Shown here piece after piece: positions 1 through 8,224 of a DNA stretch of 8,224 bases. Below the pieces are notes generated by a model, which was not told the DNA's origin, did no database searches, and worked only from the letters and a program-made list of their open reading frames with translations. The translations under genes and the position numbers were made by a program. Positions within the stretch are counted from its first letter, which is position 1; the number at the start of each line of letters is the position of its first letter. Source of the stretch: a virus (Duplodnaviria > Heunggongvirae > Uroviricota > Caudoviricetes); the IMG/VR virus record IMGVR_UViG_2648501186_000018, positions 1-8,224 of that record; one strand, given 5' to 3'.

Positions 1-837
1 TTACGCCTTCTTTATATCCTCCATAATTTCAGAGTGGGACATATTTGGGACATTATCACCAAAAATGTCGTCTATTTTCCTCGCATGCTCTGTCAAATGA
101 TTAGGCGCAAGGTGAGCATACCTACGAACCATTTCTATGGACTCCCATCCGCCCATTTCCTGAAGCACTGATAATGGGACGCCTGACTGAATCAGCCAGC
201 TTGCCCAGGTGTGTCTGAGGTCATGGAAACGGAAATCTTCAATTCCTGCACGACGACAAGCTGATAGCCATGATGTCTTGCTGTCGATGCGCATCTTCCT
301 GACCGCAGGCGTTGATGTTCCATCTGCTCGCTTAGCCGCCTTGGTATGTACAAACACCCATTTGTGATGCTTGCCTATTTGATCACGCAACACTTTACAG
401 GCGGTATCGTTCAGCGCCACACCAATGGCGCGGTTTGATTTGCTCTCTTCTGGATTCACCCAGGCAACTCGTCGCTGCATGTCGATTTGTTGCCATTCCA
501 GATTTATGATGTTCGACTTTCTCAGACCAGTTGCCAGCGCAAACTTGACGACAGATTTCAGTGGTTCGGGGCACTCATCAATAAGGCGTTTTGCTTCCTC
601 CTTTTCCAGCCATCTGACTCGCTTGTTTCTGACCGCTGGTATCTTGATGACAGGCGCTTTTTCCAGCCACTTCCAGTCGCGTTCTGCAGCACGGAGAATG
701 GCCTTTATCATGGCAAGATGCTTTGCCTTTGTCTGAGTTGATACTGGCTTTGGTTCATAAACAGGCAGTTCTTTACCTTTCCTGATGGCGGCCTGAACTT
801 TCTGTTTCCATATTTCTTTCGTCTTTCTGTTATGCAT
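1..837 (-). CDS. int: Phage tyrosine integrase (DLP12 IntD-like), 5'-truncated. The homologous frame stays open up to 1026 but contains no ATG/GTG/TTG there; the first ATG at 837 gives 278 aa.
   Basis: The translation carries the tyrosine-recombinase C-terminal catalytic region (…[12 protein letters not shown]…[15 protein letters not shown]), with the HxxR box and the catalytic Tyr. Reading the same frame upstream of 837 gives …[55 protein letters not shown], which continues the integrase homology. The frame is closed by TGA at 1027-1029. The ~55 N-terminal residues (arm-binding domain) expected for this family are absent. Confidence 0.85.
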
Positions 838-1026
838 TCTGCTTACAGCAGAGTAAATCTTTGCCTCCGAGATATCTTTAAGCCTTATACCCTCAAAATG
901 TTCAAGCCAGAACTCAATCCGGCTTTTATCTGAATCGAGAGATTTTTTATCAGCTTTTTCCTCAAGCCATCTTAGGCAGGCCTCTTCAAAAGTGACATCA
1001 GGTACGCTGCAGGATAATGTCCGGTA

Positions 1027-1407
1027 TCATGCTGCCACCTTCTGCTCAGTGGCTTTCTGTTTCAGGAATCCAAGAGCTTTCACTGCTTCGGCCTGTGTCA
1101 GTTCTGACGATGCGCGAATGTCGCGGCGAAATATCTGGGAACAGAGCGGCAATAAGTCGTCATCCCATGTTTTATCCAGGGCGATCAGCAGAGTGTTAAT
1201 CTCCTGCATGGTTTCATCGTTAATGGCTTTTTTGCTGGCCCCGTGGCGTTGCAAATGATCGATGCATAGCGATTCAAACAGGTGCTGGGGCAGGCCTTTT
1301 TCCATGTCGTCTGCCAGTTCTGCCTCTTTCTCTTCACGGGCGATCTGCTGGTAGTAACGCGCCCAGCTCTGAGCCTCAAGACGATCCTGAATGTAATAAG
1401 CGTTCAT
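1027..1407 (-). CDS. Chimeric gam'-'bet ORF (126 aa). The first ~60 aa match lambda Gam from its internal GamS start; the last ~65 aa match the C-terminus of lambda Bet. Probable in-frame deletion product.
   Basis: N-terminus [60 protein letters not shown] matches the lambda Gam sequence as I recall it. C-terminus …[64 protein letters not shown] matches the end of lambda Bet as recalled. A strong Shine-Dalgarno AGGAG lies 7 nt upstream of the ATG at 1407. Both matches are from memory and need alignment to confirm. Confidence 0.75.
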
Positions 1408-1482
1408 GGCTGAACTCCTGAAAATGGCTGTGAAAATATCGCCCGCGAAATGCCAGGCTGATTAGGAAAACAGGAAAGGGGA

Positions 1483-1689
1483 TTAGCGATTCAGGCCGTT
1501 ACCGCGTCCGTCGAGAAAAACTTCCACGAGCAAATCACGGGTATAAGTGCGCTCGATGCCGCGATGCAGATAAAGCCGTCCGCGTAAATTAGCTGATGCA
1601 GTCCAGGTACCATCTTTGTGTTTGACCAGCATTCCTGGCATGACCGCACCTCGATTAACGGTCTGCGTTCCGTAATGTTGATGAACCAT
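1483..1689 (-). CDS. kil: Kil-like small protein (68 aa), similar to Rac KilR, a host FtsZ/cell-division inhibitor. The start is assigned to the ATG at 1689; the ORF track extends the frame to a TTG at 1893.
   Basis: An AGGAG Shine-Dalgarno sits 5 nt upstream of the ATG at 1687-1689. The product [68 protein letters not shown] aligns with my recollection of Rac KilR (shared PG…(V/L)xH…GT(W/Y)xASAN…R(K/R)LY…T(F/Y)xxD…(K/E)VFL). It lies immediately upstream of gam in the PL operon, which is the lambda kil position. The KilR match is from memory and needs confirmation. Confidence 0.55.
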
Positions 1690-1910
1690 AAAAACTCCTG
1701 CCCGTAAGCTGGGCTGCTGAACATATAGAGACTTCTGCGCGTATTCAGGCGGTGGATGGCCGCCGGTTGTCATAACTAAGCCGCCTCGTTGAAGCGACTG
1801 AGGTATAAAGTGTTGTGTTGATTTCAGCTGGTCACACCGACGTTCACGCGTCCGTTTCACCCCTCGCACTCCCCGAAGCCTGCTGAAATTCAAACTGCGG
1901 ATCTAAGCGG

Positions 1911-1962
1911 TCATCGCAACGGTGAAACAGGTGGTTACCGTATCGTTGTGTCGTTGCGATGA
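1911..1962 (-). repeat. Perfect 11-bp inverted repeat (TCATCGCAACG … CGTTGCGATGA) with a 30-nt spacer, at the 5' end of the predicted PL transcript.
   Basis: Read directly: 1911-1921 tcatcgcaacg and 1952-1962 cgttgcgatga are exact reverse complements. The spacer contains a second TCGTTG copy that could pair alternatively with the first arm. Confidence 0.7.
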
Positions 1963-1964
1963 AT

Positions 1965-2040
1965 TTATTTAAAACTATAGTTGTTTTATCGTCAACAACA
2001 AAAGTTGTTTTATCGGTTGTTTTAAATATAACTGGTTGTA
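1965..2040 (-). promoter_or_regulatory. PL promoter with OL operators (leftward early promoter).
   Basis: On the minus strand: -35 TTGACG (plus 1990-1995), 17-bp spacer, -10 TTAAAT (plus 1967-1972). The segment GTTGTTGACGATAAAACAACTATAGTTTTAAAT is near-identical to the PR segment GTTGTTGACTAAAAACAACCATAGTTTTAAT at 3514-3544. Operator-like elements: palindrome AACAAC-aaaa-GTTGTT at 1994-2009; GTTGTTTTATCG repeated at 1980-1991 and 2004-2015; further GTTGT copies at 2017-2021 and 2035-2039. Confidence 0.6.
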
Positions 2041-2132
2041 TTTAGGATGGATTTATTTTGTGACTTGCATCGCATAGCGATAACTGAAGTGAGGTGTGGT
2101 GGTTTTTTGGACGGTATGAGTTATGAGGGGGA

Positions 2133-2161
2133 GGAAAAGAAAACCCGGCGCGGTTGCCGGG
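2133..2161 (-). terminator. Rho-independent terminator ending the cI-lipoprotein transcript.
   Basis: GC stem cccggc (2144-2149) / gccggg (2156-2161) with loop gcggtt. On the minus strand it is followed by TTTTCTTTTCC, 9 nt downstream of the lipoprotein stop. Confidence 0.7.
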
Positions 2162-2169
2162 TATGATTA

Positions 2170-2550
2170 TCAGTCAGCCCAACCTGATTTCGAGTTTATT
2201 TGGGTTTCTGACATTGTGTATTTCTTAATCGTGTCATCGTTAAAAAGAATAGTAAGTTCTTTTTTCGTACCGTTCGTTCCGTTATGGAATAATCCATAGA
2301 ATGGAATAAAAGTGGTGCCATTAACTTTTACTTTTGCAAAGGCGTACTTCCAGATCTCCTTTCCACTGTCAGTATATGAAACAGCATCAGGAGAACCAAA
2401 GTAAGATTTAACCTCATTCTTGGTTGTTTTACCTTCCTGAAGTTTAGACTGGACACTAATTTCAGTTTCATTTTTGAGTTGCTGGTTGCCTGAAGAAGCA
2501 CACCCAGCCAATACAGATGCCATCATGGCAGCGATTAGGATTTTTCTCAT
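2170..2550 (-). CDS. Outer-membrane-type lipoprotein (126 aa) of unknown function, encoded immediately downstream of cI in the position lambda uses for rexAB.
   Basis: Signal peptide MRKILIAAMMASVLAGC with lipobox LAGC, and Ala at +2 after the Cys. An RBS GGAAAC precedes the start. The mature part shows a BamE/SmpA-OmlA-like motif pattern (G.T..EV...FG.PD…W.Y.F…LTILFN), which is my inference only. It is flanked by its own terminator and separated from cI by a 229-bp AT-rich spacer. Confidence 0.8.
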   Translation of the reverse strand: MRKILIAAMMASVLAGCASSGNQQLKNETEISVQSKLQEGKTTKNEVKSYFGSPDAVSYTDSGKEIWKYAFAKVKVNGTTFIPFYGLFHNGTNGTKKELTILFNDDTIKKYTMSETQINSKSGWAD

Positions 2551-2779
2551 TTTATGTTTCCATTCATTATAATCAGAAACATCTTAACATAATGATTCGA
2601 AATAAAAACCGCTACGAGATAGGGAGACATTTTGCTGACAGTAGCAACAAATCTCAGCTAACAACGAGAATATTTACTGAAATATGCAAACAGATTTGGC
2701 GTTCTTATAGAGAATTTAGTGCAATATCTAATCCGAGTGGTATAAACCTTAACCTTCGCTCCCTTAAGTCGTAGATAAA

Positions 2780-3469
2780 TTAACCATGCTTCCTGTACGT
2801 CTGCGGCATGCTTCCAATGACCTTACCGAATATGAACACCCGGTTCATCTCGTCTTTCTCGATCGGGTCCCACGGCGAGTAGCTCTTGTTATCAGAGATA
2901 ACCAGCAGCTTATCCTTCATCATTTGAAGACGTTTTACATGGGCAGTGTCGTCGTACAGAAACGCATAGATGCCATCACCGTCGAAAGATTTAACAGTGA
3001 TATCAACGAACAGCAGGTCACCTGGTTCGATCGTCCCTGACATGCTGTCACCTCGCACGTTAATGATGCGGATATTTTCCGCCTTCCTGCCATCGAACAT
3101 GTGACGAGCATCGTCAAACGAGTACTCAACCGAGCGTAGAACTTCTACAAACTCACGGTTGATTACACCTGGCCCGGCACTGACTTCTATATCAAGAACG
3201 TCAATTTTGAAGTATTTGGAATGGCTGACAGTTGATTGTATTGGTTGCACTGTACTGTCTGACATATTTCCAACGCCAGAAGATAACCATTCTGCGCGTA
3301 CACCCAAAGCGTTCGCGATCTCCACGATTTTAGTTGTTTGGTTAGCTTTCCCTGTTTCGATTTTCTGAATAGCAGCCTGGCTAACCCCGACCAAATCCCC
3401 AAGCGCCTTTTGTGTAAGGCCTCGCGCTAATCTGGCTTCTTTAAGTCTTTCTGAGAGTGTTGTTTTCAT
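2780..3469 (-). CDS. cI: CI-type prophage repressor: N-terminal XRE-family HTH plus C-terminal LexA-like S24 autopeptidase domain.
   Basis: HTH region LTQKALGDLVGVSQAAIQKIE. Ala-Gly cleavage site in EVSAGPG. Catalytic Ser in VRGDSM and Lys in HVKRL. It is divergent from cro across an operator region. The mRNA is probably leaderless or nearly so, since the PRM -10 lies about 7 nt upstream of the ATG. Confidence 0.95.
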   Translation of the reverse strand: MKTTLSERLKEARLARGLTQKALGDLVGVSQAAIQKIETGKANQTTKIVEIANALGVRAEWLSSGVGNMSDSTVQPIQSTVSHSKYFKIDVLDIEVSAGPGVINREFVEVLRSVEYSFDDARHMFDGRKAENIRIINVRGDSMSGTIEPGDLLFVDITVKSFDGDGIYAFLYDDTAHVKRLQMMKDKLLVISDNKSYSPWDPIEKDEMNRVFIFGKVIGSMPQTYRKHG

Positions 3470-3475
3470 AGATCA

Positions 3476-3546
3476 AATGTACAACCAAGGTTTTATTTCA
3501 TCAAACGAAAATGGTTGTTGACTAAAAACAACCATAGTTTTAATCT
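3476..3546. promoter_or_regulatory. OR operator region with divergent promoters PRM (leftward, cI) and PR (rightward, cro).
   Basis: PR: -35 TTGACT at 3518-3523, 17-bp spacer, -10 TAATCT at 3541-3546. PRM on the minus strand: -35 TTGATG (plus 3499-3504), 17-bp spacer, -10 TACATT (plus 3476-3481). Perfect 9-bp inverted repeat ATGGTTGTT-N7-AACAACCAT at 3511-3535 overlaps the PR -35. An additional ACAACCA half-site at 3481-3487 overlaps the PRM -10. Confidence 0.7.
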
Positions 3547-3573
3547 TGATTCGGATTAACCACGGAGGTTGTT

Positions 3574-3804
3574 ATGAACCCAGCAATCAAAACAGCGATC
3601 AATATCGTTGGTTCACAAAAGAAACTAGGCGATGCCTGCGAAGTTTCACAGCAGGCCGTCTATAAGTGGCTTCACAACAAAGCAAAGGTATCCCCTGAAC
3701 ATGTCGGCAGCATTGTTACGGCTACTGGTGGAGTTGTGAAGGCATACCAGATTCGCCCGGATCTTCCGAAGTTGTTTCCACACACCGAAAAGAACGCAGC
3801 TTAA
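3574..3804 (+). CDS. cro: Cro-like HTH regulator of the YdaS type (76 aa).
   Basis: First gene downstream of PR and divergent from cI. RBS GGAGG lies 6 nt upstream of the ATG. The family-like pattern AIxxxGSQxxLxxxxxVSQQAVxxW…GGV…RPDL matches the YdaS/Cro family as I recall it. Confidence 0.85.
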   Translation: MNPAIKTAINIVGSQKKLGDACEVSQQAVYKWLHNKAKVSPEHVGSIVTATGGVVKAYQIRPDLPKLFPHTEKNAA

Positions 3805-3816
3805 ATTTCCATTTCA

Positions 3817-3829
3817 CGCTCTTTAACAA
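3817..3829 (+). promoter_or_regulatory. boxA-like element (CGCTCTTTAACAA) in the cro-O spacer, at the nutR position; no convincing boxB hairpin follows.
   Basis: Matches the rrn/lambdoid boxA consensus GCTCTTTAACAA, 13 nt after the cro stop. Downstream there is only an AGTCAATT direct repeat (3847-3854 and 3867-3874), not a GC hairpin. Confidence 0.45.
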
Positions 3830-3873
3830 TAAGCAATCAACTTAACAGTCAATTCAAACTAAAGGAGTCAATT

Positions 3874-5046
3874 ATGCAACCACTTACATACCAACAGACT
3901 AGCGGATTTATTCCGACTGCGGTGATAAATCGTTCTCAAACAAAACAAGCTCCAGGCCACGAAAAAATCCGTGATGCCGTCCGCGCCTGGTCGGCTGTAG
4001 ATAATCAGGATGTCGTTGCCGCACTCATTGTGAATGAGTATCGGGAGCAGGGCGACGGCACCATCGATTTCCCTGATGATGTCAGCCGTGCACGCCAGAA
4101 GCTGTTCCGCTTCCTCGATAACAAATTCGATTCTGAAAAATACCGAAATAACGTGCGTGAACTGACCCCGGCAATTCTGGCGGTACTACCGCTGGAATAT
4201 CGCGGTTACCTGGTTGAGCAGGATAGCTTCATGACTCGGTTGGCCGGATTAACACAGCACCAGCTTCTGGTCTTCCTGGCTGTCATGCGCAAAACATATG
4301 GCTTTAATAAAAGACTGGATTGGGTGAGCAACGAGCAACTTTCCGAATTGACCGGGATATTGCCGCACAAGTGTTCTGCTGCAAAAAGCGTTCTGGTAAA
4401 GCGTGGGATTCTTATTCAGAGCGGGCGAAATATCGGCATTAATAATGTGGTCAGTGAATGGTCAACATTACCCGAATCAGGTAAGAAAAATAAAGTTTAC
4501 CTGAAAGAGGTAAATTTACCTGAATCAGGTAAGAAAAGTTTACCCAAATCAGGTAAAGGCGTTTACCCGAATCAGGTAAACACAAAAGACAAACTAACAA
4601 AAGACAATATAAAACCTTTTTCGTCCGAGAATTCTGGCGAATCCTCTGACCAGCCAGAAAACGACCTTCCTGTGGTGAAACCGGATGCTGCAATTCAGAG
4701 TGGCAGCAAGTGGGGGACAGCAGAAGACCTGACCGCCGCAGAGTGGATGTTTGACATGGTGAAGACCATCGCGCCATCAGCCAGAAAACCGAATTTTGCA
4801 GGGTGGGCTAACGATATCCGCCTGATGCGTGAACGTGACGGACGTAACCACCGCGACATGTGCGTGCTGTTCCGCTGGGCATGCCAGGACAACTTCTGGT
4901 CCGGTAACGTGCTGAGTCCGGCCAAACTCCGCGACAAGTGGACCCAGCTCGAAATCAACCGAAACAAGCAACAGGCTGGCGTGACAGCCGGCAAACCAAA
5001 ACTCGACCTGACGAACACTGACTGGATTTACGGGGTGGATTTATGA
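3874..5046 (+). CDS. O: Replication initiator, lambda O-like (390 aa), with the origin embedded in the gene.
   Basis: The N-terminal domain shares the lambda O signature (LTQHQLLVFLAVMRKTYGFNKRLDWVSNEQLSELTGILPHKCSAAKSVLVKRGILIQ versus lambda O LTKRQFKVLLAILRKTYGWNKPMDRITDSQLSEITKLP…). RBS AAGGAG precedes the start. The gene overlaps P by ATGA and contains the iterons listed separately. Confidence 0.9.
   Translation: MQPLTYQQTSGFIPTAVINRSQTKQAPGHEKIRDAVRAWSAVDNQDVVAALIVNEYREQGDGTIDFPDDVSRARQKLFRFLDNKFDSEKYRNNVRELTPAILAVLPLEYRGYLVEQDSFMTRLAGLTQHQLLVFLAVMRKTYGFNKRLDWVSNEQLSELTGILPHKCSAAKSVLVKRGILIQSGRNIGINNVVSEWSTLPESGKKNKVYLKEVNLPESGKKSLPKSGKGVYPNQVNTKDKLTKDNIKPFSSENSGESSDQPENDLPVVKPDAAIQSGSKWGTAEDLTAAEWMFDMVKTIAPSARKPNFAGWANDIRLMRERDGRNHRDMCVLFRWACQDNFWSGNVLSPAKLRDKWTQLEINRNKQQAGVTAGKPKLDLTNTDWIYGVDL
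4468..4579. repeat. Origin iterons: five 17-bp palindromic repeats TTACC-N7-GGTAA inside the O gene, followed by an A/T-rich stretch (4580-4622).
   Basis: Copies at 4468-4484, 4497-4513 (degenerate), 4516-4532, 4540-4556 and 4563-4579. They are mirrored in the protein as repeated PESGKK/PKSGK motifs. This is the lambda ori architecture, with different iteron sequence. Confidence 0.85.
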
Positions 5047-6697: not shown

Positions 6698-8224
6698 ATG
6701 AAAAAAGCCATAGCATATATGCGATTTTCATCACCAGGTCAGATGTCTGGCGACTCATTAAACCGACAGAGAAGACTTATTGCTGAATGGTTAAAGGTAA
6801 ATAGTGATTATTATCTTGATACCATAACATATGAAGATTTAGGATTAAGTGCATTCAAAGGAAAGCATGCACAATCAGGAGCTTTTTCGGAATTTTTAGA
6901 TGCTATAGAGCATGGTTATATATTGCCAGGAACTACATTGTTAGTTGAAAGTCTGGACAGACTTTCAAGAGAAAAAGTCGGTGAAGCGATTGAACGTCTG
7001 AAATTGATTTTGAATCACGGTATTGATGTTATAACTCTTTGCGACAATACAGTCTATAATATTGGCTCTTTGAATGAGCCATATTCATTAATAAAAGCCA
7101 TACTTATAGCACAAAGGGCAAATGAAGAAAGCGAGATAAAGTCAAGTCGGGTTAAATTATCATGGAAGAAAAAACGGCAGGATGCACTGGAATCAGGTAC
7201 GATTATGACGGCGTCTTGTCCGAGATGGCTCTCCTTAGATGACAAAAGAACGGCTTTTGTTCCAGACCCCGACAGGGTGAAAACTATTGAGCTAATTTTT
7301 AAACTCAGGATGGAAAGGCGCTCATTGAATGCAATAGCCAAGTATTTAAATGATCATGCTGTAAAGAATTTCTCAGGAAAAGAAAGTGCATGGGGACCTT
7401 CTGTAATTGAAAAATTATTAGCGAATAAAGCTCTGATAGGTATTTGCGTACCTTCATATCGTGCAAGAGGGAAAGGGATAAGTGAAATCGCTGGCTATTA
7501 TCCCAGAGTCATATCAGATGATTTGTTTTACGCTGTACAGGAAATTCGGTTGGCACCTTTTGGTATTAGCAATAGTAGCAAGAATCCTATGCTAATAAAT
7601 CTACTTCGAACAGTTATGAAGTGTGAGGCTTGTGGTAATACCATGATTGTTCATGCGGTATCTGGAAGTTTGCATGGCTATTATGTTTGTCCGATGAGAA
7701 GATTACATCGATGTGACAGGCCATCAATAAAAAGAGATTTGGTTGATTATAATATCATTAATGAATTGCTTTTTAATTGTAGCAAAATTCAACCAGTTGA
7801 AAACAAGAAAGATGCTAATGAAACTTTAGAGTTAAAAATTATTGAGCTTCAGATGAAAATTAATAATTTAATCGTTGCATTGTCTGTCGCGCCTGAAGTT
7901 ACCGCTATAGCAGAGAAAATAAGACTATTAGATAAGGAATTACGAAGGGCTTCGGTATCATTGAAAACTTTGAAGAGTAAAGGTGTAAATTCATTCAGTG
8001 ATTTTTATGCTATTGACTTAACCAGTAAAAATGGACGAGAGTTATGCCGTACACTTGCCTATAAAACATTCGAAAAAATCATAATTAATACGGATAATAA
8101 AACCTGTGATATCTATTTTATGAATGGCATTGTTTTTAAACACTATCCTTTAATGAAAGTAATATCCGCCCAGCAGGCGATAAGTGCTCTCAAATATATG
8201 GTTGATGGTGAGATTTATTTCTAA
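6698..8224 (+). CDS. ybcK: Large serine recombinase, YbcK-like (508 aa): resolvase-type catalytic domain, recombinase domain, zinc-ribbon and coiled-coil.
   Basis: N-terminal catalytic motif AYMRFSSPGQ…R with the Ser nucleophile. Cys-rich zinc-ribbon CEACGN…CPMRRLHRC. Coiled-coil segment LELKIIELQMKINNLIVAL. RBS AGGTG lies 6 nt upstream. It follows emrE as in K-12 DLP12 (from memory). Confidence 0.9.
   Translation: MKKAIAYMRFSSPGQMSGDSLNRQRRLIAEWLKVNSDYYLDTITYEDLGLSAFKGKHAQSGAFSEFLDAIEHGYILPGTTLLVESLDRLSREKVGEAIERLKLILNHGIDVITLCDNTVYNIGSLNEPYSLIKAILIAQRANEESEIKSSRVKLSWKKKRQDALESGTIMTASCPRWLSLDDKRTAFVPDPDRVKTIELIFKLRMERRSLNAIAKYLNDHAVKNFSGKESAWGPSVIEKLLANKALIGICVPSYRARGKGISEIAGYYPRVISDDLFYAVQEIRLAPFGISNSSKNPMLINLLRTVMKCEACGNTMIVHAVSGSLHGYYVCPMRRLHRCDRPSIKRDLVDYNIINELLFNCSKIQPVENKKDANETLELKIIELQMKINNLIVALSVAPEVTAIAEKIRLLDKELRRASVSLKTLKSKGVNSFSDFYAIDLTSKNGRELCRTLAYKTFEKIIINTDNKTCDIYFMNGIVFKHYPLMKVISAQQAISALKYMVDGEIYF

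Follow-up and report, generated by a model that had tools for sequence, protein, structure and literature searches.

The window, by which we mean the whole 8,224-nucleotide stretch of DNA analysed here, is a defective lambdoid prophage of Escherichia coli that belongs to the DLP12/PhiR26_1 type and lacks an N gene. Its minus strand carries a truncated int (1-837), a gam' fusion ORF (1027-1407), kil (1483-1689), a gene for a 126-aa lipoprotein (2170-2550), and cI (2780-3469). The plus strand carries cro (3574-3804), followed by O/P/ren, emrE, and a recombinase gene. According to the PGAP annotation of identical genes, kil encodes a 68-aa cell-division inhibitor, and it is the first gene of the PL operon. 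The active phage PhiR26_1 is 99.6% identical to the window over 3 kb, and three deletions distinguish the window from it. Comparison of window positions 1-1407 and 3874-5046 with PhiR26_1 (locus L275) identified the window as a deletion derivative of a PhiR26_1-like phage. The PhiR26_1 segments absent from the window are 1021-3309 (from the 5' part of int to exo), 3531-4236 (from bet to gam'), and 7259-7639, and their loss has left the truncated int, the gam' fusion ORF, and a single 390-aa ORF that joins the YdaT/'cII'-like gene to O. In intact relatives, kil, gam, bet, and exo come directly after the PL leader. Another E. coli strain, L73, is 100% identical to the window around the inverted repeat described below.

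Just upstream of PL, a terminator scan detected an intrinsic terminator on the minus strand (2143-2162) that closes the cI-lipoprotein transcript; it consists of a 7-bp stem with G-C in six pairs, followed by a T-run. The lipoprotein gene, together with this strong terminator of its own, lies between cI and PL, which is the position of rexAB in lambda. Relatives of other immunity types carry other cargo at this place, including an ASCH-domain gene with a hypothetical gene, a SIR2-family gene, or small hypothetical genes.

Promoter scoring placed PL on the minus strand, with a -35 hexamer (TTGACG, 1990-1995) and a -10 hexamer (TTAAAT, 1967-1972) separated by a 17-nt spacer. The -10 hexamer ends 6 nt before A1960, and from this geometry A1960 is the predicted +1. 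The adjoining OL operator region (1965-2040, not assigned to a strand) was recognised by direct and inverted repeats of the AACAAC..GTTGTT / AACTATAGTT type and resembles the PR operator region. The layout of PL, TTGTTGAC..AAAACAAC[T/C]ATAGTTTTAA, likewise parallels that of PR at 3515-3550. A promoter-like match on the plus strand (1954-1981) was set aside as a by-product of the palindromic operator. The OL region is specific to this immunity type, and homology in other genomes stops at approximately 1960. BLAST homology to the window ended at query position 270/271, corresponding to window 1959/1960, in many E. coli genomes. Since this break falls at the predicted +1, the transcript start would also be the point at which the exchangeable immunity region meets the left-operon module.

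An exact inverted repeat lies at this junction. Its two arms, TCATCGCAACG (1911-1921) and CGTTGCGATGA (1952-1962), are 11 bp long and 100% complementary, with a 30-nt spacer. Read on the transcribed minus strand, the 5' arm corresponds to 1952-1962 (TCATCGCAACG) and the 3' arm to 1911-1921 (CGTTGCGATGA), and the intervening loop (1922-1951) is C/A-rich and contains a second CAACGA copy. The plus strand carries TCGTTG twice (1943-1948 and 1951-1956), so that the RNA would contain two copies of CAACGA, making a weaker, alternative 5-bp pairing with CGUUG possible. An earlier interpretation made from the letters alone (hereafter, the sequence-only reading) had pointed out the exact 11-bp repeat with its 30-nt spacer, the second TCGTTG as an alternative pairing partner, and the proximity of the repeat to the predicted PL start, and our analysis bore out all three. 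This is the sole exact inverted repeat of at least 11 bp (spacer 3-60) in the window. However, one or more repeats of this kind also arose in 11.6% of 1000 Markov-1 simulated windows, so that its presence by itself is only slightly unusual and constitutes weak evidence.

In the predicted RNA, the stem is 9 bp rather than 11 bp long, because bases 1962 and 1961 of the DNA arm lie upstream of +1. Nucleotides +1 to +9 (AUCGCAACG) pair with +40 to +48 (CGUUGCGAU). We then examined promoter geometry in 61 distinct upstream sequences of relatives, which came from three immunity groups of E. coli and from about nine promoter types of other genera (Klebsiella, Enterobacter, Citrobacter, and Kluyvera-type prophages). 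The best-scoring promoter had a 17-nt spacer throughout. The distance from the -10 hexamer to the A of AUCG was 6 nt in 52 sequences and 7 nt in seven, that is, in 59 of the 61. The same promoter-hairpin geometry was present in at least 12 unrelated promoter/immunity sequences of related phages.

Approximately 270 related loci were gathered from GTDB genomes, IMG/VR, and metagenomes, 165 of which were of the main E. coli type. Among these 165, the stem positions +2 to +8 and +41 to +47 were nearly invariant. Position +1 was A in 143 loci and G in 22, either of which pairs with U48. The top pair (+9/+40) was G-C in 17 loci, including the window, A.C in about 143, and A-U in five, so that the exact 11-bp repeat occurs in only a minority of loci and the stem of the RNA is usually 8 bp. 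The loop was the most variable part, with six common polymorphisms, and neither Hfq (ARN) nor CsrA (GGA) motifs were conserved in it when inspected by eye. Two loci (L006 and L007) carried an 8-nt loop insertion that forms an extra inner helix and extends the spacer to 38 nt. In O157-type prophages, BLAST homology stopped inside the loop at window position 1926, and the sequence on the 5' side was AU-rich and unrelated. The first nine nucleotides of their 5' arm (AUUGCAUCG) nevertheless stand in the same register, with 8/9 pairs retained and one U.G. A single pair was broken in rare variants, namely A.G in PhiR26_1, U.U in L068, and A.C in L006.

The sequence-only reading had proposed that conservation and covariation of the pairing be checked in related prophages. 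The pairing was indeed retained, but covariation was not significant: in column shuffles, 342 of 500 did as well as the observed pair counts, and RNAalifold applied to the whole leader found changes on both sides in 0 of 67 predicted pairs. These formal tests were negative because the sequences are too similar (at least 90% alike), and at such similarity the pairing could be merely inherited.

Outside the E. coli type, short leaders of other genera (Klebsiella/Enterobacter-type) contained a 6-bp mini-hairpin, AUCGACAAC-9 nt-GUUGUC, located 2-3 nt from the predicted +1. The mini-hairpins and the E. coli form share AUCG.CAAC and CACCGUUG, and a common origin would imply one or two compensatory changes. 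A relation between the two is suggestive only; MAFFT misaligned the arms when they were aligned together, and the mini-hairpins escape the E. coli family model, leaving homology unproven. One further leader type had a very weak 5' hairpin and a lambda-like leader type had none. AUCG at +1 to +4 was kept even in these leader types with a weak or absent hairpin.

Folding differed considerably between variants. The RNA of 1905-1965 (minus strand) gave -19.2 kcal/mol (z = -4.1), and the window variant taken from the predicted +1 gave -14.7 kcal/mol (z = -2.3). The corresponding values were -8.6 kcal/mol (z = -1.0) for the majority variant with its 8-bp stem, -8.0 kcal/mol (z = 0) for the O157 type from +1, and -19 to -21 kcal/mol (z of about -3) for the insertion variants. 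The first 58 nt folded as a single stem closing the 30-nt loop. Within a 298-nt context, the ensemble probability of the stem was 0.55-0.83 for the window form, approximately 0.5 for the majority form, 0.7 for the second immunity group, and 0.00 for the O157 type. In the window, a rival helix between +31-46 and +95-109 (with +31 to +40 opposite +100 to +109) came within 0.5 kcal/mol; as both arms of the hairpin are transcribed first, co-transcriptional folding should favour the hairpin. There were no unpaired nucleotides at the predicted +1 in any E. coli variant, and 2-3 in the short-leader types. The 3' arm is followed by GACCGCUUAGAUCC with no U-tract, and the terminator scan did not report the hairpin. 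An intrinsic terminator or attenuator was therefore discarded as its identity, since the stem lacks a U-tract.

We next examined the RNA between the hairpin and kil. The kil start codon is ATG 1689 in RefSeq genomes, and this ATG and its AGGAG are kept across genera while the upstream sequence differs. The conserved start indicates that the hairpin heads a 271-nt untranslated leader (1690-1960, minus strand), in which no convincing ORF was found. Further helices are predicted inside this leader, including the 1821-1831 / 1879-1889 repeat and a hairpin formed by GUCGCUUC and GAGGCGGC. This leader has a modular build: a hairpin module (+1 to about +62) was confined to E. coli prophages, and from about +63 on the sequence was related to leaders found in other genera. 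HK225, in which kil sits further down the operon, shares the 120 nt closest to kil. Of 5426 complete E. coli genomes, 2232 carried the leader, as did 24 phage records (83-100% identity) and active phages such as PhiR26_1 and Perceval. The homologous region carried no annotation among the 60 RefSeq genomes listed, and the leader was not described in the literature on Perceval/LF82 or in the lambdoid surveys. The hairpin is an uncatalogued, ordinary-looking RNA feature. In this prophage group, the PL transcript starts with a stem-loop that is conserved and with a long, structured leader ahead of the toxic gene kil.

Several elements within the leader are also worth recording. The GUCGCUUC-AAC-GAGGCGGC hairpin (1774-1810, minus strand) is strong, conserved, and kil-proximal, and it is embedded in CAUACCU...AGUUAUG. 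It encloses an in-frame upstream ATG at 1772 and was also found in L125-L127 and in HK225 (L181); the leader part that contains it also occurs in phages whose first gene is not kil. The 11-nt repeat at 1821-1831 / 1879-1889, with one mismatch, closes a 47-nt domain of the leader. Between this domain and the loop of the 5' hairpin there is an 8-bp perfect match, GTTTCACC/GGTGAAAC (1854-1861 / 1921-1928). This pairing rivals the 5' hairpin in the window variant and is lost in the majority variant.

For early-left expression in N-less lambdoid phages outside the HK022 put family, a 2025 survey simply guesses 'put-like' (PMC12315714). The putL element of HK022 begins at +3 of the PL transcript (PMC9378689), which made a put-like identity for the hairpin a reasonable idea, and the sequence-only reading had offered it as one option. 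Like putL, the PL hairpin lies ahead of the early-left genes of an N-less lambdoid phage and starts within 1-3 nt of the point where PL transcription is predicted to begin, and some put phages also have a kil homologue downstream. We compared the two using a put model composed of eight RNAs (HK022 L and R, UPF_BP1, phiEt88, CobraSix, S9-5, HK639, and PdC23), which were found by BLAST in GenBank records, aligned, and folded; the resulting covariance model was searched with filters off. In the control, it recovered HK022 putL at 96.1 bits and putR at 52.4 bits. Neither the PL leader of the window nor those of 22 related loci gave a match, and the best score elsewhere was 10 bits (E = 0.4), in unrelated places.

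The conserved put motifs were also absent from the window leader. The put RNAs consist of two adjacent stem-loops of roughly 70 nt that leave invariant nucleotides unpaired or bulged, and they contain the invariant motifs GAACGGCGCG, GUCGG, and GGCGGG.UCAGGAUGA.CGGCAAU as well as clear covariation in stem II. In contrast, the PL hairpin has one stem, a variable loop, and no covariation. King et al. in 2011 reportedly described put-like RNAs in HK639 and others. HK022 carries a second copy, putR, whereas blastn-short and the family model detected no second copy of the PL hairpin or leader anywhere in the window, its PR operon included, or across the first 16 kb of PhiR26_1. Taken with the Rfam search described below, these negative results led us to reject membership in the put family, leaving a positional analogy. 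The put-like option of the sequence-only reading thus failed on the model, the motifs, and the PR copy alike, and the loop, which should be conserved if it were part of an aptamer that binds RNA polymerase, was the most variable part of the element.

The leader was likewise distinct from that of lambda. The nutL/N leader of lambda occupies the same place on the map, as an untranslated leader of about 220-270 nt directly after PL. Unlike lambda nutL, the leader here has no boxA, no boxB, and no N gene. A search for boxA (CGCUCUUA / GCUCUUUAACAA) in 1690-1960 (minus strand) gave no match within three mismatches, and no boxB-type 5-bp stem with a GNRA-like pentaloop was present in the leader, including after a weak CGCUUAGA motif. 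No N gene follows PL, and kil came first in the window and in all annotated relatives. The absence of N and of nutL-like boxes, both claimed earlier, was thereby confirmed. This very common N-less prophage group therefore has neither put nor nutL in its leader. Separately, CGCTCTTTAACAA at 3816-3829 (plus strand) contains a perfect rrn-type boxA (exact at 3818-3829), located between cro and the next ORF, at a distance of 12 nt from the cro stop codon. No other exact boxA exists in the window, and this one occupies a nutR-equivalent position, with no obvious boxB following it. This post-cro boxA was also found in PhiR26_1, which has the same immunity, and was absent from the cro-ydaT spacer of L006, which has a different one.

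A search of 4227 Rfam models, including prophage sRNAs, with E up to 10 gave no match to 1690-1965 on either strand. At the same threshold, only spurious matches were obtained in the whole window, all within 4465-4582 (mir-26, rliD). These weak matches arose because this part of the O gene contains origin iterons. The iterons are five copies of a ~22-nt repeat (TTACCYGAATCAGGTAA...) within the O-like gene (4468-4584, plus strand).

5'-terminal stem-loops, such as that of the ompA leader, stabilise mRNA against 5'-end-dependent decay by RppH and RNase E. Like the ompA 5' UTR hairpin, the PL hairpin lies 0-3 nt from the predicted 5' end of a long untranslated leader, and as in ompA-type stem-loops it would be the stem that matters, with loop sequence and length free. 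The free loop suggests a generic hairpin rather than an aptamer, and the retained stem, the extreme 5' site, and the lack of a U-tract, an unpaired motif, or a second copy fit the profile of a generic 5'-terminal stem-loop. The likeness to ompA is one of analogy, however: unlike ompA-type stems, the PL stem is only marginally stable in most variants, and alternative folds compete with it. Our preferred interpretation, which we hold tentatively, is that the PL hairpin may be such a generic stem-loop, protecting the 5' end of the PL mRNA. Transcription would start at A1960, +1 to +9 would pair with +40 to +48 and close the 30-nt C/A-rich loop, and the hairpin would open a conserved, structured, untranslated leader of 271 nt ending at the kil start codon. 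Having no single-stranded 5' end, this ribosome-free leader might be shielded from attack by RppH and RNase E, and the hairpin may also nucleate folding of the leader. Counting against 5'-end protection are the lack of significant covariation, the 8-bp majority stem with z = -1.0, the pair-breaking variants, the modest ensemble probabilities of the stem in the 298-nt context, the failure of the family model to detect the mini-hairpins, and the lambda-like leader type that lacks a 5'-terminal hairpin. We are more confident of the structural statement, that a hairpin lies at the predicted +1 of the PL RNA, than of the functional one. Among the options raised by the sequence-only reading, a stability or processing element is, by this analogy, the one we favour; if the hairpin only stabilises mRNA, it would be an ordinary element.

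The repeat may instead be incidental, with the block AUCGCAAC...GUUGCGAU conserved as an initial transcribed sequence and immunity-swap junction and with no selected RNA function. This explanation, a strong rival that we consider only somewhat less probable than 5'-end protection, draws on the roughly 12% of random windows that hold an exact repeat of at least 11 bp and on the non-significant covariation. Moreover, the downstream leader is conserved as much as the stem arms, the majority (z = -1.0) and O157 (z = 0) variants fold no better than shuffled sequences, and the retention of AUCG at +1 to +4 without a good hairpin suggests that the start region, rather than pairing, is what is constrained. 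On the other hand, a perfect 9-bp stem placed right at the predicted +1 would be expected far less often than a repeat anywhere (about 1e-3 with ±2 nt, as a rough estimate), and the arms are clearly under tighter constraint than the loop. The O157-type 5' arm holds its register and most of its pairs beside an unrelated loop, and changes at +1 and +9/+40 mostly keep or restore pairing, which also argues against an incidental repeat. A palindromic operator for a regulator just downstream of PL, the DNA-site option of the sequence-only reading, appears very improbable. It would account for an exact palindrome beside a repressor-controlled promoter and for arms that contain CAAC/GTTG, as OL half-sites do. 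However, the arm centres are 41 bp apart in the window and 49 bp apart in L006/L007, the spacing being 30 and 38 bp within the family and 9 bp in the mini-hairpin that may be related, and in most relatives the arms do not form an exact palindrome. Because the element is common to at least three unrelated immunity/repressor types, travelling with the left operon across immunity regions, it is not an immunity-specific operator.

Two further explanations assign the RNA a more specific role. One is a new cis-acting antitermination or anti-Rho RNA, unrelated to put, with which polymerase would cross the 271-nt leader and the early-left operon without N. Its position matches that of putL, at +3 of the HK022 PL transcript (PMC9378689). 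N-less phages are viable, PhiR26_1 and Perceval being active, and the distant kil-family phages HK639, CobraSix, and S9-5 have put upstream of kil. A long ribosome-free leader would also be an obvious Rho target, and its first 60 nt are C-rich (C/G 1.5). Nevertheless, we regard such an RNA as unlikely: the put model found no match and the put motifs are absent, the PR operon has no second copy, the majority variant folds marginally, and a scan found no strong intrinsic terminators in the first 2.7 kb of the PhiR26_1 PL operon. The hypervariable, replaceable loop of variable length is also unlike an RNA polymerase-binding aptamer, and we do not consider it likely that the hairpin modifies RNA polymerase. 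That the hairpin, alone or with the leader, is an unrecognised cis-acting RNA rendering polymerase resistant to Rho or terminators in N-less DLP12/PhiR26_1-type phages seems quite unlikely. If the leader did confer processivity, it would represent a new antitermination RNA and a second route, unrelated to put, by which early antitermination could proceed independently of protein; about 40% of E. coli genomes would carry it. The other explanation is a leader switch that tunes toxic Kil, in which the 3' arm and loop would pair with +100 to +109 (GGUGAAACGG) or with the kil initiation region. The full-length minimum free energy structure (-83.1 kcal/mol) does use +31 to +46 / +95 to +109, the hairpin-enforced fold being 0.5 kcal/mol worse, and the 8-bp GTTTCACC/GGTGAAAC repeat is present. 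In addition, the kil start GGUUCAUCAAC is similar to the 5' arm and could form a duplex of -14.3 kcal/mol with the 3'-arm region. A switch nonetheless strikes us as quite improbable, as the alternative helix is lost in the majority variant (+34 U-to-A, uncompensated), short-leader relatives lack the pairing partners, and the hairpin arms are transcribed long before their competitors, so that the hairpin should form first.

Some minor likenesses between start regions and between leader types were also observed. The kil start AUGGUUCAUCAAC (1683-1699) resembles the PL start region AAUUCAUCGCAAC (1952-1966), both on the minus strand; this likeness and the possible -14.3 kcal/mol duplex are probably a coincidence. 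Among the non-E. coli kil leaders from IMG/VR, another type (L101-L122 and L137-L143) starts with CACCAAGACGCACCACGAACCACC..., which is similar to the opening 25 nt of the lambda PL transcript (AUCAGCAGGACGCACUGACCACC). This type has conserved CCCACGAAGUAGCCG and GGUGG closing segments, with no N gene after them. Just upstream of the kil ribosome-binding site, GUUCCGCCAGCCUGGCGACAAGGGCAAA was common to all of the non-E. coli types.
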